Shown: positions 607-42,038 of the stretch, piece after piece
Layout: each line of letters begins with the position of its first letter
Position numbering within the stretch: the stretch's first letter is position 1
Source of the DNA: Dehalococcoidia bacterium
GTDB lineage: Bacteria; Chloroflexota; Dehalococcoidia; Bin125
Length of the DNA stretch: 64,000 nucleotides
Direction: 5' to 3'
Assembly (NCBI GenBank): GCA_022825265.1
Contig: JAJDXE010000004.1
Span: forward strand, 270,341-334,340
Notes under the pieces: model-generated
Databases searched by the model: none
What the model saw: the letters and a program-made list of their open reading frames with translations, nothing else
Told to the model about the DNA's origin: nothing
Program-made: the position numbers and the translations under genes

Positions 607-1371
607 ATGTCCGACGGATACACCGAGTCCAGCATCGAGGTCGCCGGCCTCCCGATCCAGGTCCGCCGGGGCGGCGAGGGACCCGGCGTCCTCGTCATCC
701 ATCACGAGACCGGCAATCCAGGCTGGCTCGAGTTCCACAACGCTCTCTCTGCCCAGCGAGACGTCATCCTGCCGACTCTCCCCGGCTGGGACGGCACCGA
801 GCGCGGCGACTGGATGCGCAGCGTCCGCGACATCGCCGCCGTCTGCTCGTTGCTGTTGGACGAACTTGGCGTCGGCGAGGCGACCGTGGTCGGACTCGGC
901 TTCGGCGGCTACGTCGCGGCCGAGATGGCGACCGCCAACCAGTCGCGCCTGAGCAGCCTGGTCCTGGTCAATGCGATGGGCCTGCAGCCGGAGGAGGGCG
1001 AGATCCGCGACCAGTTCCTCGAAGCCCACGCCGACTACGTCAAGTCCTGCTTCGCCGACCCGGCCAACTTCACCGACCTCTACGGCGAGGAAGTCTCGAC
1101 CGAGCAGCTCGTCGCCTGGGACGCTAACCGGGAGATGACCGCCCGGACGGCCTGGAAACCGTTCCTCTACAGCCAGACCCTGCCCCACCTGCTCAAGAAT
1201 GTCAGCGTCAAGACGAAGGTGATCAGGGGCGCGCAGGACACCGTCGTCCCAGCCGCCGTCGGCGAGCAGTACGTGGAACTTCTCGGAGACGCCGAGATGA
1301 TCGAGATTCCCGGAGGCCACAACCTCGAATCCGACGCCGCCGAAGCTCTCGCCGAGGCGATCGTCGGCTGA
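607..1371 (+). CDS. Alpha/beta-hydrolase fold protein.
   Basis: 254 aa. Contains the HHETGNPGW motif and a nucleophile-elbow-like GLGFGGYVAAE, typical of the alpha/beta hydrolase family. Confidence 0.75.
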   Translation: MSDGYTESSIEVAGLPIQVRRGGEGPGVLVIHHETGNPGWLEFHNALSAQRDVILPTLPGWDGTERGDWMRSVRDIAAVCSLLLDELGVGEATVVGLGFGGYVAAEMATANQSRLSSLVLVNAMGLQPEEGEIRDQFLEAHADYVKSCFADPANFTDLYGEEVSTEQLVAWDANREMTARTAWKPFLYSQTLPHLLKNVSVKTKVIRGAQDTVVPAAVGEQYVELLGDAEMIEIPGGHNLESDAAEALAEAIVG

Positions 1372-1381
1372 CCTCATATTC

Positions 1382-3757: not shown

Positions 3758-4038
3758 GCGGCGACCTCGATCCGATCGATCTTCTCGCAGGAGCGCCGAA
3801 CGCGCGCCAGATCGTGCCGAGCCTGCGCTCTCAGCCAGAATTCTGCGGTGCTGCCGAAGGCTTGCTCGAACCTAAACGCCATGTCCGCTGTAATCGGCGC
3901 TCGTTCTTCGCAGATTGCCGCGAGCTCTTGTTCGTCAACCTTGAGATGCTTCGCTGCTGCCCCGACGGTCAAGCCGAGTGCGGCGATGCAGTCCTCGCGG
4001 ATCGTGGCCCCTGGGTGAGATGGGTTCTCGCGGCTCAT
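3754..4038 (-). CDS. higA: HigA-type antitoxin (XRE-family HTH).
   Basis: Sequence MSRENPSHPGATIREDCIAALGLTVGAAAKHLKVDEQELAAICEERAPITADMAFRFEQAFG matches the HigA/XRE HTH family. An AAGGAG Shine-Dalgarno sits 6 nt upstream of the ATG. It lies 10 nt downstream of the higB stop. Confidence 0.8.
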   Translation of the reverse strand: MSRENPSHPGATIREDCIAALGLTVGAAAKHLKVDEQELAAICEERAPITADMAFRFEQAFGSTAEFWLRAQARHDLARVRRSCEKIDRIEVAA

Positions 4039-4387: not shown

Positions 4388-5641
4388 ATGCACCTGATGT
4401 ACTTCACCGAGCAGCCGATGTCGGCCTACGACGAGCACGCCGCCGAGGAGGGCGTGACCGCCCTGCTGTTCTCCAACTCCAACTTCGATCCCGTCGCCGG
4501 CTCGGAGCTCTACAACCATCGGCTGACCGAGTACAAGCTGGCCGAGGAAGTCGGCGTTGACGGGATCATGCTCAACGAGCACCACAACGCGCCTTTCTGC
4601 ATGCAGGCCAAGTGCAACATCTGGGCCTCGGTCCTCGCCGGCGCCACCGAGCGGGTCAAGATCGTCCTGCTCGGCAACCCCCTGCCGCTGGCCGACAACC
4701 CGATCCGCCTGGCCGAAGAGCTGGCCATGATCGACATGATCTCCGGCGGCCGGCTCGTCTCCGGCTTCGTCCGCGGCGGCGGCACCGAGCAGCTCGCCAC
4801 CGGCGTTAACCCGGCCTACAACCGCGAGCGCTTCGAAGAGGCCCACGACCTGATCGTCGAGGCCTGGACCCGTCCCGGCCCCTTCCGCTGGGAGGGCCGC
4901 CATTACCAGCACCGCGTCGTCAATCCCTGGGCCCTGCCGATGCAGCAGCCGCATCCGCGCATCTGGATTCCCGGTGTGCTCTCGCGCGAGACCGTGGTCT
5001 GGGCGGCCAAGCACCGCTACCCCTACATCGCGCTCAACACGACCATCGAGGCGACCAAGCGCATCTGGCAGACCTACGACGACGCAGCCCACGAGGTCGG
5101 CTATGACCCCGGTCCCGAGAACCGCGGCTACCTGCTCCGCGTCCACGTCGCCGACACCACCGAGAAGGCGATGGAGAACGCCTCGCAGTTCATGTGGATG
5201 CAGGGTGAGTTCACCGGCCTCGCGCACCCGGTCTGGTCAAACCCGGCCGGTTACGCCTCGCCCCGCAACCGCGAAGCGCTGGTCGAAGTCATGAACGGAC
5301 GCCGACCGCCGCCGCGCGCGCAGTCCTTCGACAACCAGATCGAGAACATGCAAATCATCGCCGGCACGCCCGACGAATGCATCCACAAGCTGCGCACCAT
5401 CCTCGAAGAGACGCGTCCCGGCATTCTCGCCCTCTGGGGCAACGACGGCCGCGTCACGCACGAGGACTCAATGCGCTGCATCGAGCTCCTCGGCACCGAG
5501 GTCATGCCCGCCCTCCGAGACATGGGGGCCGAGCTCGACCTTGACGGACCGTTCGACTCCGAGCCGCCGGTCAGCATCAACTACGACGAAGCCGCCAAAG
5601 CCCGCGTCGCAGCGGCGGCAGCCGCTGGTTCGGGCGACTAG
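4388..5641 (+). CDS. LLM-class (luciferase-like) flavin/F420-dependent oxidoreductase.
   Basis: Begins MHLMYFTEQPMSAYDEHAAEEG...NEHHN...GGRLVSGF..., a luciferase-like monooxygenase fold. The ATG at 4388 has a GGAG 7 nt upstream. The ORF-track N-terminal extension from 4253 is rejected. Confidence 0.8.
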   Translation: MHLMYFTEQPMSAYDEHAAEEGVTALLFSNSNFDPVAGSELYNHRLTEYKLAEEVGVDGIMLNEHHNAPFCMQAKCNIWASVLAGATERVKIVLLGNPLPLADNPIRLAEELAMIDMISGGRLVSGFVRGGGTEQLATGVNPAYNRERFEEAHDLIVEAWTRPGPFRWEGRHYQHRVVNPWALPMQQPHPRIWIPGVLSRETVVWAAKHRYPYIALNTTIEATKRIWQTYDDAAHEVGYDPGPENRGYLLRVHVADTTEKAMENASQFMWMQGEFTGLAHPVWSNPAGYASPRNREALVEVMNGRRPPPRAQSFDNQIENMQIIAGTPDECIHKLRTILEETRPGILALWGNDGRVTHEDSMRCIELLGTEVMPALRDMGAELDLDGPFDSEPPVSINYDEAAKARVAAAAAAGSGD

Positions 5642-5648
5642 CAACAAA

Positions 5649-5740
5649 GAGCTCCCCCTCTGGGGGAGCTGCCGCACCCATGTCCTCTCTCCCCCCGCGT
5701 AGCGGGGGGAGATGCCGAAGGCAGAGGGGGGTCCCCAGAA
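5649..5740. repeat. Intergenic palindromic repeat element of the CCCCCTCTGGGGG family, locus A.
   Basis: Sequence is gagctCCCCCTCTGGGGGagctg, then ctccccccgcgtagcggggggag, then gaggggggtcccc. The same family is seen at about 15468, 15894, 19730 and 40581. Confidence 0.7.
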
Positions 5741-5796
5741 GGAGCCAAGAACCAGAACCAACACGCGACCCAGCACGAGCCAAAGGACTCCTAGAA

Positions 5797-6570
5797 ATGG
5801 CAACCGTAGACATCCTCCTCCCCGGCTACTCGTTCGGCACCGACTCCGGCACGCCCGCCTTCTGCGCCGTGATCCTGGTTGAATCCGACGGCCGCCGCAT
5901 CCTCGTCGACACGGCCCACGTCGGCCGCCGCGTCCAGCTACAGGAACAGCTCGCCGCCCGCGGACTCGGCGTCTCCGACATCGACCTGGTCTTCATGACC
6001 CACGCCCACTGGGACCACGTCCAGAACTTCGACGCCTTCCCCGACGTGCCGATGGCGATCCACCCGCACGAGCGCAAGTACGCCTCCGAGCCCCATGTCA
6101 ACGACTGGGCCACCCCTCAGTGGACCGGCGCCGCCATCGAAACCCACCCGATGACCGAGGTCAACGACGGCGACGAACTGGCCAAGGGCGTCCGAGTGAT
6201 TCATCTGCCGGGGCACTCGCCGGGCAGTATTGGTCTGCTGGTCGAGACCGAAGCCGGCGTCGCCGGCCTGACCGGCGACGCGATGCACACCGCCGCCGTC
6301 GGCAAGGCCGGACGCAGCCCGCTCGTCTTCTACAGCGAGTCCCAGGCCAACGAGTCCATCGCCCGCGTGATGAGCGCCTCCGACCTGCTCTATCCCGGAC
6401 ACGACCGCCCATTCCGTATGGTCGACGGCGATCCGGAGTACATCGAGGAGTACAAGCTCACCCTCAGCGGAGTCCAGCCCGACATGGCCGGCCTCACGTT
6501 CGCCGATCCGCCGACCGAACTCGTCACCTGGGTCATGCCCGGCATCGAGGACCAGCCCACCTATCAGTAG
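5797..6570 (+). CDS. MBL-fold metallo-hydrolase (N-acyl-homoserine-lactonase-like).
   Basis: MATVDILLPGYSF...THAHWDHVQNF...HLPGHSPGS...GDAMH..YPGHD, giving metallo-beta-lactamase motifs HxHxDH, H and D. The start was chosen after the repeat element. Confidence 0.8.
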   Translation: MATVDILLPGYSFGTDSGTPAFCAVILVESDGRRILVDTAHVGRRVQLQEQLAARGLGVSDIDLVFMTHAHWDHVQNFDAFPDVPMAIHPHERKYASEPHVNDWATPQWTGAAIETHPMTEVNDGDELAKGVRVIHLPGHSPGSIGLLVETEAGVAGLTGDAMHTAAVGKAGRSPLVFYSESQANESIARVMSASDLLYPGHDRPFRMVDGDPEYIEEYKLTLSGVQPDMAGLTFADPPTELVTWVMPGIEDQPTYQ

Positions 6571-6571
6571 G

Positions 6572-7456
6572 TTGCGACTAGCACTCATCAACGGCCGCCG
6601 GGTCGCCTACGAAATCGGCGGCGACCCCAACGGCCGGCCCGTTCTGATCATCCACGGCGCCTGGGGCGGCCCATCCTCAACCCTGTGGAACGGCCCCAGG
6701 CTCCGCTGGCGGGTCCCCACCAACGGCCTCAAGCTGATCTACTACGATCGCCGCTGCGCCGGCCTCTCGCAGTACGACACCGAACCCTTCACCCTCGAGG
6801 ACCTCGCCAACGACGCCGTCGACGTCCTCGACTACCTGGACGTTGAACAGGCCGCAGCCATCGCCACATCCGCCGGCGGCCCAATCGGCCTGAGGCTCGC
6901 GCTCGACCATCCAGAACGCGTCGAAGCCCTGGTGCTGCTCAACACCGGAGCATCATTGATGTCGCTCACGCCGACCGGCATCGACCTTGACGACCCCTTC
7001 GTCGCGGACAGGCTTGCCACCGTAGCAAGGCGGCTCGCCCTCCTCAATCTGCTCGATCGCCGGGGCATCAACGCAGCCGTCGCCGCCTCAGAAGACGAGT
7101 GGCGGTCTCCGCCCCAGCCGGCGGAACCCGACCCGTCGCTGAAGACCTACCGACACAACCGCCAGGCAGCGGCGAAGAACCTGTCGGAGCCCGAACTCGC
7201 CCGCCTCGCGCACGGCGCGTTGCTCAACATGCGAGCGCAACGGGACGAAGACTTGAGCGACGAACTGTATCGAATTGGCTGCCCGGTCCTGATCGTCCAC
7301 GGCGACAGCGACACGACGGTGCCCCTGACCTTAGGCCAGGCATTGGCTTCCTCAACACCTGGCTCAGAAGTCACTATCCTTCGGGGAGTCGGCCACGGGC
7401 TGATCGTCGATCCGGCCGCGCAGGAGGTGGTCGTAACCTGGTTGAGACAGCGCTAA
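6572..7456 (+). CDS. Alpha/beta hydrolase.
   Basis: 294 aa with an alternative (TTG) start per the ORF track. Contains VLIIHGAWGG and a C-terminal HG. Confidence 0.65.
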   Translation: MRLALINGRRVAYEIGGDPNGRPVLIIHGAWGGPSSTLWNGPRLRWRVPTNGLKLIYYDRRCAGLSQYDTEPFTLEDLANDAVDVLDYLDVEQAAAIATSAGGPIGLRLALDHPERVEALVLLNTGASLMSLTPTGIDLDDPFVADRLATVARRLALLNLLDRRGINAAVAASEDEWRSPPQPAEPDPSLKTYRHNRQAAAKNLSEPELARLAHGALLNMRAQRDEDLSDELYRIGCPVLIVHGDSDTTVPLTLGQALASSTPGSEVTILRGVGHGLIVDPAAQEVVVTWLRQR

Positions 7457-7465
7457 GATGGTCGC

Positions 7466-7654
7466 ATGACGACCATTGAACCCAAGCGCAACGTACCTCC
7501 GGACCTGGACAAGCTCGCAGCAGAACAGGGTGTCAAGCCGATGACTGCGCAAGAATTCGCGCAGGCGCTACGCGATCTCTTCGAGGACGAGGAAGACAAA
7601 CAGAAGTTCCTGGAGAGGTTCGATCGCTTCTGGCCGAACGAGCCAGATGGCTGA
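7466..7654 (+). CDS. Small protein, putative antitoxin partner of the downstream PIN-domain protein.
   Basis: 62 aa, acidic C-terminus. Overlaps the downstream PIN gene by 8 nt, the usual translationally coupled TA arrangement. Confidence 0.5.
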   Translation: MTTIEPKRNVPPDLDKLAAEQGVKPMTAQEFAQALRDLFEDEEDKQKFLERFDRFWPNEPDG

Positions 7655-8102
7655 TTCCCTTCAGCGGGTCTCAGTCGACACGAATGTCGTTAGCTCCATC
7701 GTTCGGGACAATGCCTATAGCGCTCCCTATCTGCGCCTACTGCAGAGCTTCGCTCCAACGCTCACCTACTTTGTGCGAGGAGAACTCGCTGCCGCGAAGT
7801 GGAGTCAGCGCCGTCAAGAGCGATTCGATGCCCTACTCGCCGAGTACAGGTATCTTCCCGATCCCGATGAGCAGACAATCGACGCGTATGTCCAAGTGAG
7901 CGCAGCTGCTGTATCGCTCGGGTTTGAGGCCTCTCTGGGGTCTGACCTGTGGATACTGGCACAGACCCTTGCGCTAGGTCTTCCTTTCATGTCCCATGAC
8001 AGCAACGCGATTCGCACTGCTGAACGGGTAGGCATCGATTACCGGACATTGAACAGGCGCGCCCTTGACCGAATAGAACAGGATCGCGCTGCGCTCCGGT
8101 AA
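7647..8102 (+). CDS. PIN-domain protein (VapC-like toxin).
   Basis: 151 aa with an N-terminal VDTNVV. Acidic residues sit at about 11, 45, 100 and 118, matching PIN catalytic spacing. Confidence 0.6.
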   Translation: MADSLQRVSVDTNVVSSIVRDNAYSAPYLRLLQSFAPTLTYFVRGELAAAKWSQRRQERFDALLAEYRYLPDPDEQTIDAYVQVSAAAVSLGFEASLGSDLWILAQTLALGLPFMSHDSNAIRTAERVGIDYRTLNRRALDRIEQDRAALR

Positions 8103-8105
8103 GTC

Positions 8106-9359
8106 CTACAACTTGTCCAACACCTCGTCGGTGTGCTCGCCGAGCAGCGGCGGGCGACGGGTGATTGCCCAGCTTCCCTTCGTCAACTGATACGGCGCGC
8201 CGGGATAGATCACTTCTCGATCCAGCTCCGGATGCTCCACCCTGACCTGCATCCCGCGATCGACGAAGTGGGGATCCTCGAGCGCTTCCTCGGGGCTGTG
8301 GATCACACCGACCTGGAAGCCGAAGTTCTGGGCCTTGGTGAAGAACTCATAGGCCGTCAGTTTCGAGGCGAGCAGATCGAACGCCTCCCGACCGGCCCCG
8401 AAGATCGCCAGCAGCTCCTCGTTGTCGCCCCTGAACACGTCCGCCAGCGAGAAGCTTTCCAGCTCCGCTCCGACCAGCAGCAGCGCAGCCTCGGGCAACT
8501 GATCGAGCAGTCCCTCGTCCTCCAACCACTGGTAGCAGAGGCCGAACTCGGCCGGGCGACGCGGCGGGATGCCGGTGTTCACGTAGCGACCGTCGGCGCA
8601 CTTGATCTGCGAAGGCATCGATGGCGCGACGCCTGCGTGACGCCCGGTCTGGCGCTGCACGGTCGAGTGAGAGACCAGCCACGAATACGAGCCCGCCTCC
8701 GTTGTCACATTGACGGAGGCATTGATGTTGACGTTGATGTGCTGGCCGACGCCGGTCGCGTCGCGATGCAGCAGCGCCGTCAGGATTGACATGAACGCGT
8801 AGTTGGAACCCGTGTGATAGGCCTGCTGACCGCCGCCGCGGACTGGCGGCAGCGAGTGATCGTCGTAGCCGTTCATCCAGGCGAAACCGCCGTTGGCAGC
8901 GAGCGTCAGGTCGGTCTGCGGCTCGTCGTCGCGCACCGAGCCGAAGCCGAAGTTGGTGATCGTGCACCAGATCAGCCCCGGGTTGTCGGACATGATCTGG
9001 TGGTAATCGACTCCCAGGCGGCCGACCGGATCGTATGTATTGGTGTCGAAGATGATGTCCGCCGACCCGGCCAGCTTGAGGAACGCATCGGCGTTCGAGC
9101 GGTCGTCGAAGTCCATCACAATGCTGCGCTTCGACGTGTTGTAGTACCAGAAAAAGAGAGACCGTTCGTGGTGCGGCTCGTCGTCGGCAAACGGCTCGTA
9201 CTGTCGCGACGGGTCGCCTTCGGGCGGCTCGATCTTGATCACGTCGGCGCCCATGTCGGCCAGCAGTTTGCCGCACCAGGCGCCACGCTCGTCTCCGATC
9301 TCGAGCACGCGCAGGTCGTCGAGCGCCATCATCGCCAGGGGATTTGAGCTGGTTGTCAT
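8106..9359 (-). CDS. CoA-transferase family III (CaiB/BaiF) protein.
   Basis: 417 aa with LRVLEIGDERGAWCGKLLADMGADVIKIEPPEGDP, typical of family III CoA-transferases. Its start overlaps the stop of the next gene by 1 nt. Confidence 0.8.
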   Translation of the reverse strand: MTTSSNPLAMMALDDLRVLEIGDERGAWCGKLLADMGADVIKIEPPEGDPSRQYEPFADDEPHHERSLFFWYYNTSKRSIVMDFDDRSNADAFLKLAGSADIIFDTNTYDPVGRLGVDYHQIMSDNPGLIWCTITNFGFGSVRDDEPQTDLTLAANGGFAWMNGYDDHSLPPVRGGGQQAYHTGSNYAFMSILTALLHRDATGVGQHINVNINASVNVTTEAGSYSWLVSHSTVQRQTGRHAGVAPSMPSQIKCADGRYVNTGIPPRRPAEFGLCYQWLEDEGLLDQLPEAALLLVGAELESFSLADVFRGDNEELLAIFGAGREAFDLLASKLTAYEFFTKAQNFGFQVGVIHSPEEALEDPHFVDRGMQVRVEHPELDREVIYPGAPYQLTKGSWAITRRPPLLGEHTDEVLDKL

Positions 9360-33592: not shown

Positions 33593-33610
33593 AGCCTCAG
33601 TGTATGAGGG

Positions 33611-33926
33611 GGTGGTCGGTGGTTAGGGAGGAATTTTTTTCTGAGGCCGCTGTGAGAAAAAGAATCGCGATCTCCAGTGTTTTACGGGAGATCGTGAGCG
33701 TCTGGGTGGTCGGAAGTGGTTGGGGTTGGAAGGTGTTGGAAAGCGGGGGTGTCCAGTTGAGCCTTGCTCGGCTTTGCTGGGCGTGTGGCGAGTGGCTGAA
33801 TGGTCGGTGGTCGGGCCGGAAATTTTTTCCTGAGCGCGCCGAGGAAAAAAGAGGCACGATCTCCTGTGTTTTGCAGGGAATCTTGGAGAGCGAGGTGGTC
33901 GGAAGTGGTTTGGAAGGTGTTGGAAC
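33611..33926. repeat. Two tandem direct repeats of about 130 bp separated by about 60 bp, each carrying an A/U-rich hairpin. Possibly a duplicated sRNA or integration-site remnant.
   Basis: Unit 1 runs about 33611-33741 and unit 2 about 33801-33926, with long colinear identity. The hairpin is tttttct...agaaaaa in one copy and tttttcct...aggaaaaa in the other, a compensatory change. Local GC is lower than the genome. Confidence 0.6.
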
Positions 33927-34026
33927 GTTGGCGGTCACTGCGGATTGCTTCTCTTCTGCCTGTCGAACCTGTGTGCGTTATTCTATCGTGATGGGCGATG
34001 GGCTGGGGGAGTCGTAGGATTCAGCT

Positions 34027-37000
34027 ATGCCAACTCCGGAGCTATGCGGCAAATTCGCTCAATACATCCTCGATCGGCACAATCAGGCCGCCGCCGAGGC
34101 AGACATCCGAGCGGCGGCGCGCGACTTTCTGATCGAAACAGGACTCGCCGATCGCGAAGAGATCGACATGGAACAGTCACCGGCGAGCGGTTGGTCGGGA
34201 CGGGTCGACCTGCGGACGCGTGACGTCATTGTCGAGTTCAAGGTGAGAATCGGCGATCGGATCAACCCGGACGAGAAGCACGTCAACCAGCTCGACGACT
34301 ATCTCAAGGCGGCAGTGGAAGGCGGACGACCACAGCGATTCGGGATCCTGACCGACGGCAAGTACTGGGTTCTGAGATGGCCGGGGATGGGGCTGGTGCG
34401 GACGCAGGCGCCGCACGCCTTCACGCTGAACAGTGCTGACCAGGGCCTGCTGCTGTACGAGTGGCTGCGCGACCAATCGCAGGCGCTGGAAGAGCGTGGC
34501 GTGCCGCCAACGGAGGACGAAGTCAAGAAGCGACTGGGCGAGGGCCCGCGATTCGAGCAGCACATTGCTGCGCTCAACGACCTCTACCAGGCCAAGCGAG
34601 ATGATCCGACGATTGCTCTCAAGCGCGATCTCTGGCGGAGCCTGCTGGCTGCCGCGCTGGGTCAGGTGGTGGAGGAGGAACCGGACCTTGACGAGCTCTT
34701 TGTGCGACATACCTATCTCTCGGTCGTGGTCGGACTGGCGGTGCAGGCGGCGTTCGGGATTGAAATCGAAGGGGCGGCTAACAGCGATCCCGTCGCGCTG
34801 CTGGGCGGTCAATTGTTCGTCGACCAGACCGGCGTCAGCGGCGTGGTCGAGTCGGACTTCTTTACCTGGCCTGCGGAAATCGGCGGGGACGAGTGGATCC
34901 GCGACCTGGCGCAGCGGATTGGCTGGTTCGACTGGAACGAGGCGGAGTCGGACATTGCGCGGATTCTGTACGAATCGGTGATTCCCGCCGACGACCGGCG
35001 ACGGCTGGGCGAGTACTACACGCCCGACTGGCTGGCGCGGGAGATTGTCGACGCGGTGGTGACCGACCCGCTGAATCAGCGGGTGCTCGATCCGGCCTGC
35101 GGATCGGGATCGTTCATCTTCGCGGCGGTGCGCAAGTACCTGAGCGCGGCCCAGGCCGACGGGCGGAGCTCGGCGCAGGCGGTGGACGGACTGCTGGATC
35201 ACGTGATCGGGATCGACGTGCATCCGGTCGCGGTGCATCTCGCCCGGGCGACCTGGACGCTGGCCGCCCGCGACGCGCTGGAAGGCGCGGTCGCCGAAGG
35301 CCAGTCGGTCAACGCGACGGTGCCTGTCTACCTGGGCGACTCGCTGCAATTGCGGGCCGAGACCTCGGGCATGTTCGCCCAGCAGACGGTGACGATTCCC
35401 GTGCCCGACCCGCCCGACTCAGACCTCGAGTTCAACCGAGAGCTGGAGTTTCCCCGAGCCCTGGTCGAGCAAGCCGACTGGTTCGACAACCTCATGACGC
35501 GAATGGCCAACGCGATCGAGAACGGTGAGGACCCGGCCTGGGCGCTGGACGACGAAGCGATCGGCAGCGGGCCGGAGCGGGAGATGCTGGAGAAGACCGC
35601 CGCCCTGCTGCAGCAACTCCACGAAGAAGGCCGCGACCACATCTGGGCGTACTACACGCGGAACCTAGTACGTCCGGTGGCGCTGCGGGCGGATCCGGTG
35701 GATGTGATCGTCGGAAATCCGCCGTGGATCACGTACAACAAGACGCAGGCGGTGATTCGTGAGGAGTTGGAGCGGCAGAGCAAGCAGCGATACGAAATCT
35801 GGGCGGGTGGTCGCTACGCGACGCACCAGGACATCGCGGGCATGTTCTACGCGCGCTGCGTGGAGCTGTACCTCAAGCAAGGCGGCATGGCGGCGATGGT
35901 GCTACCGCACAGCGCCTTGCAGACCGGACAGTACACGAAGTGGCGAACAGGTCAGTGGGGCGTGCTATCGGTTGACCTGGGCGTGCGCCCGCCGTGGGAC
36001 CTCGAACAGGTCGAACCGAACAGCTTCTTCCCCGTCCCATCTTGCGTGGCGTTTCTGCTGCGCAGGGAACCGAGCGGTAAGCCGCTCGCAAGTCAGGCGG
36101 AGCGGTGGTTGGGGGGTGCCGGAGGGCCGTTCTCGCGTGAGCGAGTTCGCCTATTCGACACATCCGGCGACTTTGCATCGCCATATGGGGGACGTGCCAG
36201 GCAAGGTGCAACAATCGTGCCTCGTGTTCTCTTTTTCGTCAACGAACAGTCTTCAATGGCCGCCGTCCAAGCGGCCAACACCGTGACCGTCTCTCCTCGG
36301 CGAAGCAGACAAGAAAAAGCACCCTGGAAACACCTTCAGCTACCAGAGCTGAAGGGTCAGACGATTGAAGCTGGGCACGTCTTCGACGTTCACCTCGGTG
36401 AGACCCTTGCCCCGCATGTGTTGTTGACGCCCCTAAGGGCAGCCTTGCCTCTTGCGAAGTCAACAAGAGTGTTGGCCAAGGCGGAGGATGGTTGGTTTGG
36501 AGTGGATCCGTTATCACTCGACGAGCGAATGCGTCGTCGCTGGAGACGAATCAGTGGTATCTGGGATAAGCAGAAGGGTGTGAACAACAAGCTAAGCCTG
36601 CTTGAAAGATTGGATTACGTCGGCAATCTCACTAACCAGAGAACGCTTGTCTCGCTAGGCACGAGGATCGCCTACACGAAGTCCGGCCGTCCGACGGCAG
36701 CTGTTGTCGATGATGATGCAGCCGTCATCGATCACACGGCCTATTGGGTTCAAGTCGGTTCGGAGACCGAAGCACATTATATTTCCGCAGTCATCAATAG
36801 CGACACTCTGGAAGCTGCGGTCGCACCGCTCATGTCGAAGGGTCAGTTCGGCGCGCGCGACATGCATAAGCACCTCTGGCGACTGCCTATCCCCGAGTAC
36901 GACGACACCGACCCGCTCCACGTCGAACTGGCTGAGGCCGGTGAGGCGGCGGCGATTGGCGCGAAGGCGCTCTGGGATGGGGTTCGGGTTGAGCGCGAGG

Positions 37001-37116
37001 GCAAGGGTCAGTCGACATCGGTGACGGTGGCTCGGCGTGAGATACGGAAGTGGTTGTCGGAGTCGGCGGAGGGTCGGCGGGTGGAGGAGTTGGTGTCGAG
37101 GTTGTTGGGGGGTTAG
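34027..37116 (+). CDS. MmeI-family Type IIL restriction-modification enzyme: single polypeptide with N-terminal PD-(D/E)xK nuclease, N6-adenine methyltransferase and C-terminal specificity domain.
   Basis: 1029 aa. The N-terminal RVDLRTRDVIVEFKV matches the MmeI VDLx8IEMK nuclease motif. Also has GEYYTPDWLAREIV, LDPACGSGSFIF (motif I) and IVGNPPWITYNK (motif IV, NPPW, gamma-class amino-MTase). A C-terminal region of about 400 aa would be the target recognition domain. Confidence 0.75.
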   Translation: MPTPELCGKFAQYILDRHNQAAAEADIRAAARDFLIETGLADREEIDMEQSPASGWSGRVDLRTRDVIVEFKVRIGDRINPDEKHVNQLDDYLKAAVEGGRPQRFGILTDGKYWVLRWPGMGLVRTQAPHAFTLNSADQGLLLYEWLRDQSQALEERGVPPTEDEVKKRLGEGPRFEQHIAALNDLYQAKRDDPTIALKRDLWRSLLAAALGQVVEEEPDLDELFVRHTYLSVVVGLAVQAAFGIEIEGAANSDPVALLGGQLFVDQTGVSGVVESDFFTWPAEIGGDEWIRDLAQRIGWFDWNEAESDIARILYESVIPADDRRRLGEYYTPDWLAREIVDAVVTDPLNQRVLDPACGSGSFIFAAVRKYLSAAQADGRSSAQAVDGLLDHVIGIDVHPVAVHLARATWTLAARDALEGAVAEGQSVNATVPVYLGDSLQLRAETSGMFAQQTVTIPVPDPPDSDLEFNRELEFPRALVEQADWFDNLMTRMANAIENGEDPAWALDDEAIGSGPEREMLEKTAALLQQLHEEGRDHIWAYYTRNLVRPVALRADPVDVIVGNPPWITYNKTQAVIREELERQSKQRYEIWAGGRYATHQDIAGMFYARCVELYLKQGGMAAMVLPHSALQTGQYTKWRTGQWGVLSVDLGVRPPWDLEQVEPNSFFPVPSCVAFLLRREPSGKPLASQAERWLGGAGGPFSRERVRLFDTSGDFASPYGGRARQGATIVPRVLFFVNEQSSMAAVQAANTVTVSPRRSRQEKAPWKHLQLPELKGQTIEAGHVFDVHLGETLAPHVLLTPLRAALPLAKSTRVLAKAEDGWFGVDPLSLDERMRRRWRRISGIWDKQKGVNNKLSLLERLDYVGNLTNQRTLVSLGTRIAYTKSGRPTAAVVDDDAAVIDHTAYWVQVGSETEAHYISAVINSDTLEAAVAPLMSKGQFGARDMHKHLWRLPIPEYDDTDPLHVELAEAGEAAAIGAKALWDGVRVEREGKGQSTSVTVARREIRKWLSESAEGRRVEELVSRLLGG

Positions 37117-38321
37117 GCAATCGGAGCCTTCCGAAGTTCCGCGTAAGGAATCTCAGGAATGTCAAGCAACGCAGACAAGTCAACACCCTCTGTCCAAAGC
37201 AACTGACCATCGTGAACGTGAGCCGACGCTACACTCAGGAGTTCTTTCGGGAGGTTCTGCTTGTAATGAGGGTTGAGAAACAGACGATCTCCGTAGCCAG
37301 TAGGCGTTGTCGCGACTGGACGTGCATTGCCGAACAGCCATACAGCCGCGAGATTCTCATTTCGAGCAACGCCGCTCTTATCGATCCAGACGCCTCTCTC
37401 AAGCCTTGGTTCTCCTAACTTTACATTCCAGTCAGGAGGCCCGTACTCTCGATTGCGAAGGCCGAAAAGTGATACAAGTCCTTCTTCAGCAAAGTTGTAG
37501 AAGCCATCTACTGTGCTGCACGCAACAACTAAAGGAGCGTCCAGCTGGCCTACTCGTTTCTCCCGCGCCTTCCTGTCGACCGCGGCACCAAGTGTAGGAG
37601 ATACATCCTTTGCGCCACCACCGAACCAAGCTGCTATCGTTCGCCCGGCAGAGATACCCCACTTTTCTCGCGGCTTGGGCCAAAGCCCTACATGGAGACT
37701 GCAGCCATCGAGCTCAATCGTCACTGAAGGAGCGTCGACGCGACGTGAATAACTACCGTCGACCTGCTGGAGAACTCTATCGGGGTCGCTATCCGCCATA
37801 AGACGTCGAATGCGCGATTGGATGTATCTTTTGGATGGTTGATTTGTAGGACAGCCGGATGGACGGACAGTGACCAGAAAGTGAGGGTCGTCGATTTCAT
37901 CGATCCACGTGTAAATCTGGTCTAGGATCGCGTTATCTGGTATCTCGGCGCTCGATGCCTGACTTACGGTTGCTTCGAGGTAGAATCGATTATCTCCCGA
38001 TCGGGCAAGGAAGTCTGGTTGGGAGTTAACACCCGGCACCCTTGGATGGACGGTGACAGCAAAGCCGAGGCGGCGTAGGAGCTCATGCACAACGAGCTCA
38101 AAGTACGCGCCAAGATGTTGGCCCTCGTCGTCTGACGTGAAGCGGCCGTGCAAATCGTCTCGATGATGATCCGTGGATGGATAGTCCTCAAACATAGCTT
38201 GGCACAAATCGCGGGATCGAATGGAGACATTCCAAGATGATCGATTCAGGAACTCGTACTCGCTCTCAAGGTGGTGTTTGGCCGAGGAATCCATCTGGAT
38301 ATCGTGTTCGAAGAGCTGCAT
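37113..38321 (-). CDS. Hypothetical 402-aa protein of unknown function, lower GC, convergent with and overlapping the 3' end of the Type IIL gene.
   Basis: Long ORF with coherent codon usage distinct from the host. Has a possible degenerate PD-(D/E)xK-like stretch (QPDFLARSGDNRFYLEATVS). No family recognised. Confidence 0.5.
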   Translation of the reverse strand: MQLFEHDIQMDSSAKHHLESEYEFLNRSSWNVSIRSRDLCQAMFEDYPSTDHHRDDLHGRFTSDDEGQHLGAYFELVVHELLRRLGFAVTVHPRVPGVNSQPDFLARSGDNRFYLEATVSQASSAEIPDNAILDQIYTWIDEIDDPHFLVTVRPSGCPTNQPSKRYIQSRIRRLMADSDPDRVLQQVDGSYSRRVDAPSVTIELDGCSLHVGLWPKPREKWGISAGRTIAAWFGGGAKDVSPTLGAAVDRKAREKRVGQLDAPLVVACSTVDGFYNFAEEGLVSLFGLRNREYGPPDWNVKLGEPRLERGVWIDKSGVARNENLAAVWLFGNARPVATTPTGYGDRLFLNPHYKQNLPKELLSVASAHVHDGQLLWTEGVDLSALLDIPEIPYAELRKAPIA

Positions 38322-38438
38322 GGCGGTCGATCCTCCAGCGATTGTTGTATCACGAAATCACGACGGTGGGTGGGATGTGGAGCGGCTATAGGTCGCGGTA
38401 GGTGGCTTCGTTGCGGCGGAGAACGTCGGTGATCGTGA

Positions 38439-38924
38439 TCAGGCGGGCGCGGCTTCAGTGAGCGTGACCGAGTGTGGGTTGTAGGAGAGGGCGAGGTCGA
38501 AGGAGCGGAGGGCGTCCTGGCCGAGGAGACTGGGGGCTTCCCAGTTGCTATCGGGCGTGGGTAGTGGGGTGGATGGCCGGGCGATCAGGATTGGTTGATC
38601 GACGACCACGGGCTTGTGCTCTTCGTCGCTGAAGGTCAGGCTAGCGGGCCGAATCACGTACTGACTCGCGCTGCCGCTGATCCCGTAGAGGTCGAAACGG
38701 GCGATGTCCCGGTCAAAGTCGATGCCCTGATAGGCCGCCCCCAGGACAGCACGCGCATGAGCTGGAGACAGCGCGGTGTAGTCCGCCCCGGTGTCGATCT
38801 GCATCCAGATCGCCGCGCTACGGCCCGCAATCTGAACCGATACGCGAACCACGGGCCGCAACACATTGCCGAGAAGCGGATGAAAGGAAGCTTCGCTCTC
38901 AAACTCCGCTCGAACCCGCGCCAC
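38439..38924 (-). CDS. Retropepsin-like (clan AA) aspartic protease.
   Basis: 161 aa with an IDTGADYTAL (DTGA) aspartyl-protease motif and a GTG start that overlaps the upstream stop (TAGTG). Confidence 0.65.
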   Translation of the reverse strand: MARVRAEFESEASFHPLLGNVLRPVVRVSVQIAGRSAAIWMQIDTGADYTALSPAHARAVLGAAYQGIDFDRDIARFDLYGISGSASQYVIRPASLTFSDEEHKPVVVDQPILIARPSTPLPTPDSNWEAPSLLGQDALRSFDLALSYNPHSVTLTEAAPA

Positions 38925-39222
38925 TACTGCGCTCGTTTGGGACGGGGGAAGGAATCAGCATGACGGAGCATCGGCCGCCGCCGAATGAAGTAGTGATAGG
39001 CGCCGCGCCGCTGTGAATCGGGCAGCGCTTCCAGCGCGGCGAACATCTCGGCAGGGTGGTCGAAGATGTGGATCGTCTCCGCGTCGTAGATCAGGACCCA
39101 TTTTCCGCGATTGTGAGGAGAGATTTCGGCGCTCTGCTCGGCCCAGCAAGCGACGTTGCGCTCGTACACGGCAAGATCCGCAAGTTGAGTCTCAACGTCG
39201 GACGCGTGCTGACTGCTGACCA
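38924..39222 (-). CDS. Small conserved hypothetical protein (about 99 aa, possibly DUF5678-like), translationally coupled to the retropepsin-like protease.
   Basis: Sequence MVSSQHASDVETQLADLAVYERNVACWAEQSAEISPHNRGKWVLIYDAETIHIFDHPAEMFAALEALP... It is embedded as the C-terminus of a long spurious antisense ORF in the track. Its stop overlaps the protease start by 1 nt. Confidence 0.5.
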
Positions 39223-39322
39223 TGATGAACGGCCTCCCTGTCGACGATGGTAATCGAACGTGTGCCCACCCTCTACACTGGCCCCAGACCTCCCGCGTAC
39301 CCCTCCGATGAAGGAGTTTCCG

Positions 39323-40561
39323 ATGAAGTTTCACTGGTTCAACCTGATGCCCTGGCCTCATCTTCCGGATGATTTCCGGGAGACGAATCGGTCGGTCTGG
39401 GTCGATGTGGACTCTCGGCTGTATGACCCGGTGGAGGGTCACCGGGTGTACAACGAGTACCTGGACCAGCTTGAGTTTGCGGCCGGGCTGGGCTTTGACG
39501 GGATCGGCGTGAACGAGCATCACCAGAACGCGTACGGGATGATGCCGTCGCCGCAGATCATGGCGGCCTCGCTGGCTCGGCGGACGAAGGACGTGACGCT
39601 GCTGCTGCTGGGTCAGTCGATTGCGCTGTACAACCCGCCGACTCGGGTGGCGGAGGAGATGGCGATGCTCGACGTGATGTCGGGCGGTCGGCTGGTGGCG
39701 GGATTCCCGGTGGGGACGTCGATGGACGACAACTTCTGCTTCGGCTCGAATCCGGCGACGCTGCGGGACAAGTACAGGGAGAATCACGACCTGATCCGTC
39801 GGGCGTGGGAGGATCCGGATGTCTTCTCGTGGAACGGCGAGTACAACAAGATTCGCTACGTCAACCTCTGGCCGCGTCCGATCCAGAAGCCGCACCCGCC
39901 GATCTGGATTCCCGGCGGCGGCTCGGTGGAGACCTGGGACTTCTGCGCGGAGATGGGCTACAACTACAGCTATCTCTCGTTCAATGGCTATGTCCGCGGT
40001 GAGGCTCTGATGCAGGGCTTCTGGAATCGGCTGGGCGAGATGGGCGTCGAGTTCAATCCGTTCCAGGGCGCGTTTGCGCAGCAGGTCGTGGTCGCCGAGA
40101 CCGACGATCAGGCCGAGCAGATGTACACCGAGCATCTGCAGTACTTCTTCGACAAGTGTCTGCATGTGTATCCCGGCTTCGCCGACGCGCCCGGGTACCG
40201 GACCGAGAACACAATCCGGGCCGGTCTGCGAGCCGGCGGCGCGCAGGGTCTGGGCATTGCGCACACGCTCGAGTGGAAGGACTGGGTGCGCGAGGGCTAC
40301 ATCGTGGCCGGCTCGCCGGACTCGGTGGCGGAGCAGATCGAGGCCCTGGCGACGAAGCTGCAGGTCGGCCACCTGGTGACTCTGCTGCACTGCGGCGACA
40401 TGCCGGACGACAAGGCTCGGGCGTCGACGAAGCTGTTCGCCGAGCAGGTGATGCCTCGGGTGAAGCACATCTGGGAAGACTACGAAGATCACTGGTCGCC
40501 GAAGCCGATCGGCTCGGAGCAGGTCGCGACGCCGGCTCCGGTGCTGACGGGCTCCAACTAG
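39323..40561 (+). CDS. LLM-class flavin-dependent oxidoreductase.
   Basis: Begins MKFHWFNLMPWPHLPDDFRETNRSVWVD...NEHHQN. An AAGGAG sits 7 nt upstream of the ATG at 39323. Confidence 0.8.
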   Translation: MKFHWFNLMPWPHLPDDFRETNRSVWVDVDSRLYDPVEGHRVYNEYLDQLEFAAGLGFDGIGVNEHHQNAYGMMPSPQIMAASLARRTKDVTLLLLGQSIALYNPPTRVAEEMAMLDVMSGGRLVAGFPVGTSMDDNFCFGSNPATLRDKYRENHDLIRRAWEDPDVFSWNGEYNKIRYVNLWPRPIQKPHPPIWIPGGGSVETWDFCAEMGYNYSYLSFNGYVRGEALMQGFWNRLGEMGVEFNPFQGAFAQQVVVAETDDQAEQMYTEHLQYFFDKCLHVYPGFADAPGYRTENTIRAGLRAGGAQGLGIAHTLEWKDWVREGYIVAGSPDSVAEQIEALATKLQVGHLVTLLHCGDMPDDKARASTKLFAEQVMPRVKHIWEDYEDHWSPKPIGSEQVATPAPVLTGSN

Positions 40562-40580
40562 GCGCATGCCTCTACTTGGT

Positions 40581-40722
40581 GAAGACCTCCCCCTCTGGGG
40601 GAGGTGCCCCGGAGGGGCGGAGGGGGCCTCTCTGCGAGCTGCGGACGTTAACGAATCTGACAGTGGGAGCCGAGCCCCCTCAGTCGCTTCGCGACAGCTC
40701 CCCCAAAAGGGGGAGGTCTTGC
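40581..40722. repeat. Complete but empty MITE-like copy of the CCCCCTCTGGGGG-family element: both inverted-repeat arms around a 44-bp core.
   Basis: Left arm is gacctCCCCCTCTGGGGGaggtgccccggaggggcggagggggcc. Right arm is gccccctcagtcgcttcgcgacagctcCCCCAAAAGGGGGaggtc. These match the arms flanking the DUF559 gene at 15468 and 15894 nearly base for base. Confidence 0.7.
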
Positions 40723-40787
40723 CTCGTGGTTGACGTGACCTGCTCGCGCATGGTGATCAGCAACGATGGACTTTTCGGACTGATCCG

Positions 40788-42038
40788 GTGAAGTTCCACT
40801 GGTTTCACGGGATGCCGTGGCCGCATTTGCCGGCCGATTTCCGTGAGCGCAATCGATCCGTGTGGGTTGACGCCGACTCGCGGTTGTACGAGCCGGTCGA
40901 GGGCCACCGGCTGTATCACGAATACCTGGATCAGCTCGAGTTCGCCGAGCGCGTTGGTTTCGACGGGCTGGTGCTCAACGAGCATCATCAGCACGTCTTT
41001 GGCCTGATGCCGTCGCCTCAATTGATGGCGGCGGCGTTGGCCCGGCGAACGTCGCGGGCGGCGATCGTTCTGCTGGGCATGTCGATCGCGCTCTACCGTC
41101 CGGCGACGCGGGCGGCGGAGGAGATCGCGATGCTCGACGTGATCTCCGGCGGCCGGATCGTGGCTGGATTTCCACTCGGCACGCCGATGGACGCAAACTA
41201 CGCCTATGGAGCGAATCCGGCGGAGTTTCGTCGCGTCTACCGCGAGCACCACGATCTGATCCTGCGGGCCTGGAAGGATCCGGACGTATTCACCTGGAAC
41301 GGCGAGTCGGCGAAGCTGCGCTACGTGAATGTCTGGCCGCGTCCGGTTCAGCAGCCGCATCCGCCGGTCTGGATTCCCGCGGATGGCGTCTCGTCGGAGA
41401 CGTGGGACTTTTGTGCTGAGCACAGGTACGCCTATGTTTGTCTCGCCTCTCGCGGATTCGCACCGGCGCAGTCGGCGATGGACGGATTCTGGTCGCGAGT
41501 TGAGTCGCGAGGGATCCCATGCAATCCGTACCAGGGTGTGGTTTCTCAAACGATTGTGGTGGCTGAATCCGATGAGGAGGCGCAGGAACGGTATCAGCCG
41601 CATCTGGACTACACGTCGCGGCACACGCTTGGCGACTTCCCCGGCTGGACCGAGGCGCCCGGCTGGCGCACGGAGCGGGGCATCCGCGAACGCGCCGTCC
41701 GAACGATGGCCGACCTGGGTAATCCAACTCCGCCGCGCATCCCGACGTGGCAAGAGCGAATAGACAGCGGCTCGCTGGCCGCCGGTTCGCCGGTGACGGT
41801 CACCGAGCACTTGGAGCACCTGGTGACAACGCTGCGCGCCGGCCACCTGGTCGGCGTGTTCCACGTCGGCGATATGCCGCACGACGCGACCCTGCGCAGC
41901 ACTCGACTGTTTGCTGAGCAGGTAATCCCACGTCTGCGACACTTGTGGGACGATTACGACGACCACTGGTCGCCGACCCCGATCGCGACCGAACCACTGA
42001 AACGAACGACTGAACCCGAACTCGCAGGAGTGAACTGA
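40788..42038 (+). CDS. LLM-class flavin-dependent oxidoreductase, paralogue of 39323-40561.
   Basis: GTG start. MKFHWFHGMPWPHLPADFRERNRSVWVD..., colinear with the upstream paralogue. Confidence 0.8.
   Translation: MKFHWFHGMPWPHLPADFRERNRSVWVDADSRLYEPVEGHRLYHEYLDQLEFAERVGFDGLVLNEHHQHVFGLMPSPQLMAAALARRTSRAAIVLLGMSIALYRPATRAAEEIAMLDVISGGRIVAGFPLGTPMDANYAYGANPAEFRRVYREHHDLILRAWKDPDVFTWNGESAKLRYVNVWPRPVQQPHPPVWIPADGVSSETWDFCAEHRYAYVCLASRGFAPAQSAMDGFWSRVESRGIPCNPYQGVVSQTIVVAESDEEAQERYQPHLDYTSRHTLGDFPGWTEAPGWRTERGIRERAVRTMADLGNPTPPRIPTWQERIDSGSLAAGSPVTVTEHLEHLVTTLRAGHLVGVFHVGDMPHDATLRSTRLFAEQVIPRLRHLWDDYDDHWSPTPIATEPLKRTTEPELAGVN

Follow-up and report, generated by a model that had tools for sequence, protein, structure and literature searches.

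A predicted PD-(D/E)xK nuclease from a large unnamed family, encoded tail-to-tail with a Type IIG restriction gene in a Dehalococcoidia bacterium

In the genome of a Dehalococcoidia bacterium (Chloroflexota; Dehalococcoidia; Bin125; assembly GCA_022825265.1), a gene for a Type IIG/IIL-like restriction-methylation enzyme runs into the stop codon of an oppositely oriented gene for a 402 amino acid long protein, which raises the question of whether this second protein serves the enzyme or has a function of its own. Both genes lie in a stretch of 64,000 nucleotides (contig JAJDXE010000004.1, positions 270,341 to 334,340), hereafter called the window, and all coordinates refer to the numbering of this stretch unless they are given for another locus. 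The restriction-methylation gene, below the Type IIG gene, occupies 34027..37116 on the plus strand, encodes 1029 amino acids and is recognized by PADLOC and Pfam matches and by its motifs. The second coding sequence occupies 37113..38321 on the minus strand and begins with ATG. The stop codons interlock in a 4-nucleotide overlap, TTAG (37113..37116), in which TAG is the stop of the plus-strand gene and TTA the complement of the TAA stop of the minus-strand gene. The first-pass annotation had already described the minus-strand open reading frame (ORF) and its tail-to-tail overlap; the ORF call with its translation and the sequence of the junction bear both out. Here, we describe why the 402-residue protein is very probably a second, separate nuclease of the PD-(D/E)xK type, and why the two genes do not constitute one functional unit.

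The 402-residue protein and its family

The minus-strand ORF is a real gene and a chance ORF is ruled out, because it has full-length homologues with a shared set of invariant residues, because AlphaFold2 models it with a mean predicted local distance difference test score (pLDDT) of 86.6, and because the ratio of nonsynonymous to synonymous substitution rates (dN/dS) is approximately 0.2. The latter value was obtained by comparison with the homologue in a related genome (locus L002; dN 0.19, dS 0.92) and indicates that the gene is under purifying selection. Its dS is similar to that of the flanking short-chain dehydrogenase (SDR) gene (dS 1.01), which points to vertical descent together with the locus. 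In nonsynonymous substitutions, the gene exceeds this neighbour (dN 0.04) approximately five-fold, and the Type IIG gene is similar in this respect (dN 0.21). When proteins are clustered at 90% identity, the 402-residue protein is the only member of its cluster, compared to 18 to 150 members for the flanking proteins, whose clusters contain proteins from Chloroflexota metagenome-assembled genomes, in line with an uncultured member of this phylum.

The gene has the lowest GC content of the window (0.536 versus approximately 0.63 for the entire window; 0.547 for the 1-kb bin 37001-38000), and its GC content at third codon positions (GC3) is 0.533, in comparison to 0.757 for the Type IIG gene and 0.82 to 0.90 for the flanking rhomboid and SDR genes. 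Its earlier description as the most AT-rich part is therefore correct within the window, but only relative to a host with approximately 63% GC, and the accompanying claim of a Lys/Asn/Ser-rich protein was wrong (K 3.0%, N 3.5%, S 7.5%; the most frequent residues are L, D, A and R). In every close relative, the GC3 of the family gene is likewise 0.05 to 0.25 below the level of its locus, despite long residence. One possibility is that selection has favoured rare codons and a low expression level of a potentially harmful nuclease. Upstream of the gene, a Shine-Dalgarno-like GGAGGA (38331..38336, minus strand) is located 9 nucleotides 5' of the ATG, within a gap of 117 nucleotides that extends to the preceding gene for a 161 amino acid long protein, and this indicates that the gene has its own translation start. 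Between 36800 and 39000, no sigma-70-like promoter was detected on the minus strand and no terminator-like site on either strand, including the junction between the two convergent genes.

The 402-residue protein produced no match in Pfam, NCBIfam, PADLOC or PHROGs at E≤0.1 and none in the PDB by sequence, and a profile built from 80 family sequences did not yield a family assignment in the curated libraries or the PDB either. The earlier statement that the protein has no recognizable family thus holds for the curated libraries, but not beyond them. A word-indexed search identified 45 homologues, none of them annotated, and an exhaustive profile search of 1.84 billion representatives of clusters formed at 50% identity retrieved 5,965 proteins at E≤1e-3, including 2,560 at E≤1e-30. 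Nearly all family members are stand-alone proteins of 340 to 430 amino acids, typically approximately 390, which are labelled "hypothetical protein" in their source records; Pfam domains are absent from ten family representatives and from all matches of a second profile search. Approximately 6,000 clusters share this architecture, of which none is named, modelled in Pfam or listed in a defence database.

The hosts comprise Chloroflexota, Actinomycetota, Alpha- and Gammaproteobacteria, Acidobacteria and Zixibacteria, and plasmid-borne members occur in Pseudomonas aeruginosa, Acinetobacter, Cellulosimicrobium and Mycolicibacterium. The phage and viral collections that were searched contain no relatives of the 402-residue protein. 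Scanning a genome collection with the single protein retrieved nothing and with an alignment query 14 loci, and a literature search on the protein accession of a plasmid-borne member returned nothing. Two longer members, P0183 and P0081 (736 amino acids), match phrog_8571, a cluster of unknown function that is not matched by the protein of the window. P0183 (772 amino acids) and P0199 (774 amino acids) carry an N-terminal extension of approximately 385 residues without a Pfam match, in which a winged-helix-like segment was seen by eye. If this is a real fusion, it would suggest a DNA-binding add-on.

The predicted structure suggests a place for the family. In the following, residue numbers refer to the full protein; the AlphaFold2 model and the alignments A1 and A4 lack Met1 and are numbered one lower. 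The model was calculated from a 31-sequence alignment and has a predicted template modelling score of 0.84, with pLDDT values of 91 to 98 across residues 60-120 and 240-270. Its N-terminal half contains three helices, a long helix (66-84) and the strands 88-91, 104-108 and 111-121; it continues with a less conserved α/β insertion (approximately 121-239), a helix (241-254), a hydrophobic strand (264-271) and further helices and strands up to the C-terminus. In the model, these elements would provide the α-β-β-β-α-β core that is typical of restriction-endonuclease-like proteins. Within the PD-(D/E)xK superfamily, an Asp is found at the N-terminus of core strand 2, a Glu in strand 3 and often another Glu on helix 1 (Steczkiewicz et al., PMC3424549).

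The conserved residues of the family coincide with these positions. Seven residues are invariant in the 31-sequence alignment (E75, L76, P93, D103, F104, E116 and K251), and among 80 much more diverse members E75, E116 and K251 remain invariant, while P102, D103 and F104 are conserved in at least 90%. E75 (codon 38097..38099, minus strand) is located on the long helix, which corresponds to core helix 1 and precedes the β-meander. P102-D103 and E116 are part of a hairpin of strand 2, turn and strand 3 formed by residues 101-120, QPDFLARSGDNRFYLEATVS (37962..38021, minus strand), as judged from the alignments and the model, with D103 at the N-terminal edge of strand 2 and E116 13 residues further on in strand 3. 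It is this stretch that the first-pass annotation had singled out as weakly PD-(D/E)xK-like, and its conservation (D103 in at least 90%, E116 in all members compared) supports its interpretation as the predicted catalytic hairpin.

The lysine of the canonical ExK motif, two residues past the acidic residue of strand 3, is not present. Position 118 is a Thr here and mostly Thr throughout the family, with Lys in only one of the 31 sequences. The invariant K251 (codon 37569..37571, minus strand) is found instead on helix 241-254, ahead of the hydrophobic strand APLVVA, and is proposed from the model to be a relocated catalytic lysine, which would make the family a PD-ExX...K variant. There are precedents for such a shift: in Pa4535, the lysine has moved onto the second core helix to give PD-EXX-K (PMC3424549), and in the endonuclease of the R2 retrotransposon, mutagenesis placed the catalytic lysine on helix 2 (PMC4838377).

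Structure comparison, which the first-pass annotation had suggested, gave matches of the same kind. Foldseek found no global match, and all matches to the model are weak and local, but nearly all top-listed matches in the PDB are PD-(D/E)xK proteins, namely R2 endonuclease, Hjc, the cap-snatching endonucleases of bunya- and arenaviruses, Bax1, FokI and DdmD. R2 endonuclease domains rank first, with a best E-value of 0.025 and one match at a probability of 0.96 and a root-mean-square deviation of 2.6 Å over 53 columns. The relevantly named matches in the viral library BFVD are a "restriction enzyme" (E 0.003), VRR-NUC and DUF2726. For the insertion and the C-terminal region (approximately 286-402), no recognizable relatives were found. 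With the model, the Foldseek matches and the invariant residues pointing in the same direction, the idea of a second nuclease, one of the candidates listed by the first-pass annotation, gains support as a prediction.

The closest parallels are thus the R2 endonuclease and Pa4535 (PDB 1y0k), with which the protein shares the predicted helix-strand-strand-strand core and the features of the variant with a lysine on helix 2, i.e., the Glu on helix 1, PD at strand 2, E in strand 3 with a D-to-E spacing of 13, the lack of the ExK lysine and a strictly conserved lysine on a later helix. In contrast to these proteins, the 402-residue protein cannot be linked to a named family by sequence similarity, and it contains approximately 120 inserted residues that separate strand 3 from the lysine helix, approximately 60 residues of helical structure at the N-terminus and a C-terminal extension of approximately 115 residues. 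It is also a stand-alone bacterial protein, unlike R2, in which the endonuclease is a domain of a retrotransposon polyprotein.

History of the junction with the Type IIG gene

The Type IIG protein matches the PADLOC model REase_MTase_IIG (E = 1e-69) and the Pfam families N6_Mtase and Eco57I, with MmeI_Mtase just below the cut-off and a weak similarity to BREX PglX. Its N-terminus holds VDLRTRDVIVEFK with the nuclease motif D61-x8-E70-x-K72, which is kept in four homologues, including those from loci L002, L006 and L007. Next come a gamma-class N6-adenine methyltransferase domain with an NPPW motif and, at the C-terminus, the part for target recognition. The enzyme shares this arrangement with the single-polypeptide enzymes of the MmeI/Eco57I type (IIG/IIL), with which the 402-residue protein shares nothing. 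From its sequence, the enzyme looks complete by itself and self-sufficient. A tblastn search with the Type IIG protein revealed no similarity to the 402-residue protein, which is not a separated domain of the enzyme. Within the Type IIG gene, the segment 36127-36727 (approximately residues 700-900, target-recognition region) has a GC3 of 0.57 to 0.59 in comparison to 0.79 to 0.87 in the central part, and directly precedes the part that is least conserved in comparison with L002 (columns 801-1000), a pattern that is consistent with an exchange of the recognition domain.

Related genomes document how this gene pair has evolved. In L002, where the flanking proteins are 90 to 94% identical to those of the window, the homologue of the 402-residue protein is 68% identical and the Type IIG gene is intact (1031 amino acids, 71% identical). 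In L006, the homologue is only 34% and the Type IIG protein 58% identical, and the Type IIG gene contains three in-frame stops, although errors are possible in this long-read assembly. The 4-nucleotide junction is the same in both loci. The loci L024 and L025 display the rhomboid/SDR/POR synteny of the window with 94% identical flanking proteins, but the Type IIG gene is missing except for remnants, and two tandem family paralogues are present. Behind copy B (64% identical to the protein of the window), the last 27 codons of a Type IIG gene are left, with the same 4-nucleotide junction, and behind copy A (34% identical to the protein of the window and 57% to the partner in L006) the last 60 codons of a Type IIG gene, 83% identical to those of the window. 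The locus looks like two former nuclease-Type IIG modules from which the Type IIG genes have been deleted.

In L005, an intact homologue (38% identical) is directly followed downstream by a methyltransferase fragment of approximately 100 amino acids and a C-terminal trace of a Type IIG gene, and in L007, which represents a different genomic context, the homologue (32%) is accompanied by an N-terminal piece of 227 amino acids, which unrelated ORFs separate from a C-terminal trace. No trace of a Type IIG gene was found in L003, L026 and L027, with homologues of 32 to 39% identity. In at least three loci, the homologue has thus remained intact, including its predicted catalytic residues, after loss of the Type IIG gene. 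The reverse situation also exists: of five metagenomic loci with Type IIG homologues, three are intact (L029, L030 and L032; 45 to 50% identity), and none of these has a family member within the 6 kb of downstream sequence.

These data show that the tail-to-tail junction is ancestral in this Chloroflexota lineage, and that the Type IIG gene was deleted or decayed on several occasions, with the 402-residue homologue remaining intact, so that either gene survives without the other. The signs of an obligate partnership are lacking, as the neighbour possesses its own nuclease motif and co-occurrence is not consistent in either direction (L024/L025, L005 and L007 versus L029, L030 and L032). The 402-residue protein is therefore not a subunit, regulator, controller or antitoxin of the Type IIG gene. 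A restriction subunit protected by the Type IIG enzyme could not survive the loss of that methyltransferase, and a controller or antitoxin would not persist once its target gene is lost; in addition, the protein is 402 residues long, lacks a helix-turn-helix match, is encoded convergently and not co-transcribed, and persists without the restriction-modification gene. The control, antitoxin or partner role considered by the first-pass annotation finds no support in these data.

As a rival reading, the protein could be an accessory of the Type IIG enzyme in a two-gene module, which finishes cleavage or degradation after the Type IIG cut or is coupled to it in expression by the convergent overlap. 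This would agree with the exact junction in L002 and in L006, where the partner is only 34% identical, with the Type IIG remnants that directly follow the homologues in L005 and in the different context of L007 as well as both paralogues of L024, with the lack of a terminator-like site between the genes and with a distant family member convergent to an MmeI-like gene (L017). We nevertheless regard it as unlikely: the Type IIG enzyme carries its own conserved D-x8-ExK motif, the partner stays intact where the Type IIG gene is lost, the three intact Type IIG homologues have no family member, the GC3 values of the two genes are unequal, and only 1 of the 20 independent family loci that were examined for it has a Type IIG/IIL gene nearby.

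Some features beside these loci are recorded here for completeness. In L024 (positions 913-3900) and L025, the tandem paralogues are 33% identical to each other, and a ParE toxin gene and a gene for a 180 amino acid long protein are located upstream. A ParE toxin gene with an upstream gene of approximately 178 codons for a putative antitoxin is present in L002 (9119-9930), L006 (7175-7989) and L024 (124-938), directly upstream of the 402-residue homologue in these three related genomes, but not in the window. A conserved three-gene cassette downstream of the homologues in L003 and L007 was considered and rejected, as the cassettes share no similarity.

Neighbourhoods of the family and of the window locus

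Outside the lineage of the window, no constant partner gene was seen across the family loci, and an adjacent methyltransferase is absent from most of them. The downstream neighbour is convergent in approximately 12 of 17 independent loci. The best-defined surroundings are those of L009 on the conjugative Acinetobacter baumannii plasmid pWM98-2 (NZ_CP116388.1), in which a type III CBASS operon (cyclase, HORMA, TRIP13 and NucC; 4804-9158) is followed by the family member, which starts 4 nucleotides past NucC like a fifth gene of the operon, and then by a recombinase and a zeta toxin. A Pseudomonas aeruginosa plasmid (L008) contributes a HEPN gene and insertion sequence elements. In Alphaproteobacteria, the neighbours include the MmeI-like enzyme mentioned above, which is convergent at a distance of 1.4 kb (L017), a TOTE primase-helicase (L020), an AIPR gene (L014) and an SMC-like ATPase with NucC and a transposase (L018). 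A TrwC relaxase is found in Rhodospirillaceae (L022). In Acidobacteria (L023), a Type I hsdS-hsdM operon is convergent to the family member and has another large ORF (713 amino acids) upstream. Of two metagenome contigs, one contains integrase, ISL3 transposase, SIR2, DprA-like and AbiEii genes (L033) and the other type IV secretion genes and transposases (L034). An McrBC-like partner in L011 was rejected, because a MoxR-like ATPase and a GNAT acetyltransferase are encoded next to the family member, and a tandem paralogue in L033 was rejected as well.

The family is thus a single-gene unit that occurs mainly in defence islands and mobile elements. The location of the 402-residue gene in a variable defence-type island is supported as well. 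The co-occurrence with restriction-modification genes, which the first-pass annotation had proposed to examine, does recur elsewhere, but as a shared island neighbourhood and not as a fixed pair.

The 161 amino acid long protein encoded upstream of and co-oriented with the 402-residue gene (38439..38924, minus strand) has a weak, sub-threshold match to retropepsin-like aspartyl proteases. Its gene occupies the same position in L002 and L006 (42 to 46% identity), is reduced to a remnant of 30 amino acids in L024 and overlaps the stop of an upstream gene of approximately 98 codons. Other family loci do not contain it, so that a functional relationship to the 402-residue gene is improbable. An operon with this ORF and an upstream ORF of 547 codons was rejected, as the former is syntenic only in the closest relatives and the latter is an antisense shadow. 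Two luciferase-like monooxygenase genes (39260..40561 and 40788..42038, plus strand; Pfam Bac_luciferase, 1e-36 and 1e-37) cast such shadows on the minus strand, i.e., the 547-codon ORF (38924-40567) and an ORF of 428 codons (40680-41966). Of the former, only the last approximately 98 codons (38924..39220) match a small gene that is called in related contigs.

On the other side of the Type IIG gene, between its start and that of the rhomboid gene, two direct repeats of approximately 190 nucleotides (74 to 83% identical) are located at 33613-33925, each of which contains two hairpins, GATCTCC-N10-GGAGATC and an A/T-rich one. Over 224 nucleotides, the stretch shares 85% identity with the gap upstream of the rhomboid gene in L024, which has no Type IIG gene, and the repeats have no match in Rfam. 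An ORF of 137 codons that covers them (33604..34017) is probably spurious.

A proposed defence nuclease and its alternatives

We consider it rather probable that the 402-residue protein is an autonomous, metal-dependent PD-(D/E)xK DNA endonuclease of the defence island, which most likely acts alone on foreign DNA. According to this proposal, the catalytic Mg2+ would be bound by D103, located where core strand 2 begins, and by E116 of strand 3, with E75 of core helix 1 as a second carboxylate, and K251, displaced from strand 3 onto the next core helix, would position and activate the water as a general-base or transition-state lysine. Substrate recognition may be provided by the poorly conserved insertion and the C-terminal region. 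The protein could operate in a Type IV-like mode, i.e., dependent on DNA modification or structure, or as an abortive-infection-type effector. Because almost no family member has an adjacent cognate methyltransferase, self and non-self would be told apart by DNA modification or structure, as in Type IV enzymes, or by activation upon infection. The overlap with the Type IIG gene would then be an inherited physical linkage that offers complementary protection at most.

A nuclease without a cognate methyltransferase, as most family loci suggest, is what characterizes Type IV enzymes, and two of these offer a comparison for the genomic setting. Mrr in the immigration control region of E. coli is a Type IV enzyme beside methylation-based systems. 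BrxU is a Type IV nuclease inside a BREX locus, likewise beside a methylation-based system (PMC8565348). The 402-residue protein resembles both as a predicted single-gene nuclease that lacks a cognate methyltransferase and is located in an island beside an N6-adenine-methylating defence gene, and the proposed benefit, complementary coverage, would by analogy be the same. Unlike in Type IV enzymes, Mrr_cat, GmrSD/DUF262, SRA, winged-helix or other modification-reading domains were not detected in the 402-residue protein, and since no modification-reading domain was detected, this likeness is an analogy and not a membership. Predicted nuclease chemistry and residence in defence islands are also shared with Shedu SduA/DUF4263, NucC/DUF6602 and Cap4. 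In contrast to these and to Mrr_cat, however, the 402-residue protein has no profile match in Pfam or PADLOC, and, different from the Shedu, NucC and Cap4 set, its family is not consistently accompanied by signalling genes.

Several points weigh against the proposal. The nuclease activity of every family member is a prediction from sequence and model, and E75, D103, E116 and K251 were matched to the core only through their secondary-structure elements. A domain that reads modified bases or acts as a sensor was not recognized in the protein with Pfam, PADLOC or Foldseek, and the Type IV-like or abortive-infection mode is for this reason a matter of guilt by association. Three family loci, L011 (Chloroflexota), L013 (Actinomycetota) and L027 (an unassigned NCBI assembly), are surrounded by metabolic genes only. 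Finally, the junction with the 3' end of the Type IIG gene is strikingly persistent in the clade of the window, even beside Type IIG remnants, and this could hint at a functional or regulatory tie.

A stronger version of the proposal is put forward only tentatively. In this version, the family would be a new, widespread class of single-gene anti-phage restriction nucleases (PD-ExX...K), which in the lineage of the window is inherited together with the Type IIG enzyme in a convergent, stop-interlocked module for complementary protection. If so, the Type IIG enzyme would cut unmodified DNA and the 402-residue enzyme would cut what escapes, e.g., modified phage DNA, while overlapping convergent transcription and rare codons would hold the level of the nuclease low.

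An autonomous defence nuclease also has to be distinguished from a nuclease without any defence role. The structural matches include Holliday-junction resolvases and VRR-NUC, which could indicate a housekeeping or accessory enzyme for repair, recombination or structure-specific cleavage (Hjc- or VRR-NUC-like) with an accidental adjacency to restriction-modification genes. The metabolic surroundings in L011, L013 and L027 and the long vertical residence, with a dS like that of the flank, would be in line with such a role. This is quite unlikely, however, in view of the patchy distribution and plasmid occurrence of the family, the single-member cluster compared to the 18 to 150 near-identical relatives of the flanking proteins, the five-fold dN and the defence or mobile-element genes that often adjoin family members.

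A selfish nuclease gene of the homing or mobile-element type, which propagates itself and tends to lodge at the 3' ends of genes or operons, is very improbable. Single-gene insertions in varied contexts, the usually convergent orientation to the downstream neighbour, the tandem paralogues of L024 that each abut a Type IIG 3' remnant, the persistently atypical GC content and the R2-type endonuclease as top PDB match would all be compatible with this idea. Neither terminal repeats that would mark a mobile cassette nor target duplications were seen around the 402-residue gene, however, and its dS equals that of the flank, which indicates vertical descent here; moreover, the window does not contain multiple copies and the phage and viral collections contain no matches. 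Convergent genes for restriction and modification are a common Type II layout, and together with the predicted PD-(D/E)xK core this would suit the restriction subunit of a classical Type II system, whose toxicity is checked by the adjacent methyltransferase, but this explanation is already largely refuted and scarcely credible, as the homologue is intact where the Type IIG or methyltransferase gene is deleted or broken (L024, L005 and L007), which would be lethal for a methylation-checked enzyme, as nearly all family loci are without an adjacent orphan methyltransferase and as the neighbour is a complete Type IIG enzyme.

For the window, the outcome is that the Type IIG enzyme is complete alone and that its overlapping neighbour is no hidden subunit or regulator. 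For the family, what has come into view is a big uncharacterized branch within a known superfamily, unusual in its architecture and with its lysine relocated, and not a new kind of restriction-modification system. Because of its invariant nuclease-type residue set, its occurrence in defence islands and on plasmids and its fast evolution, this family is a reasonable candidate for a new defence or restriction nuclease that works alone, and one that could be tested cheaply.

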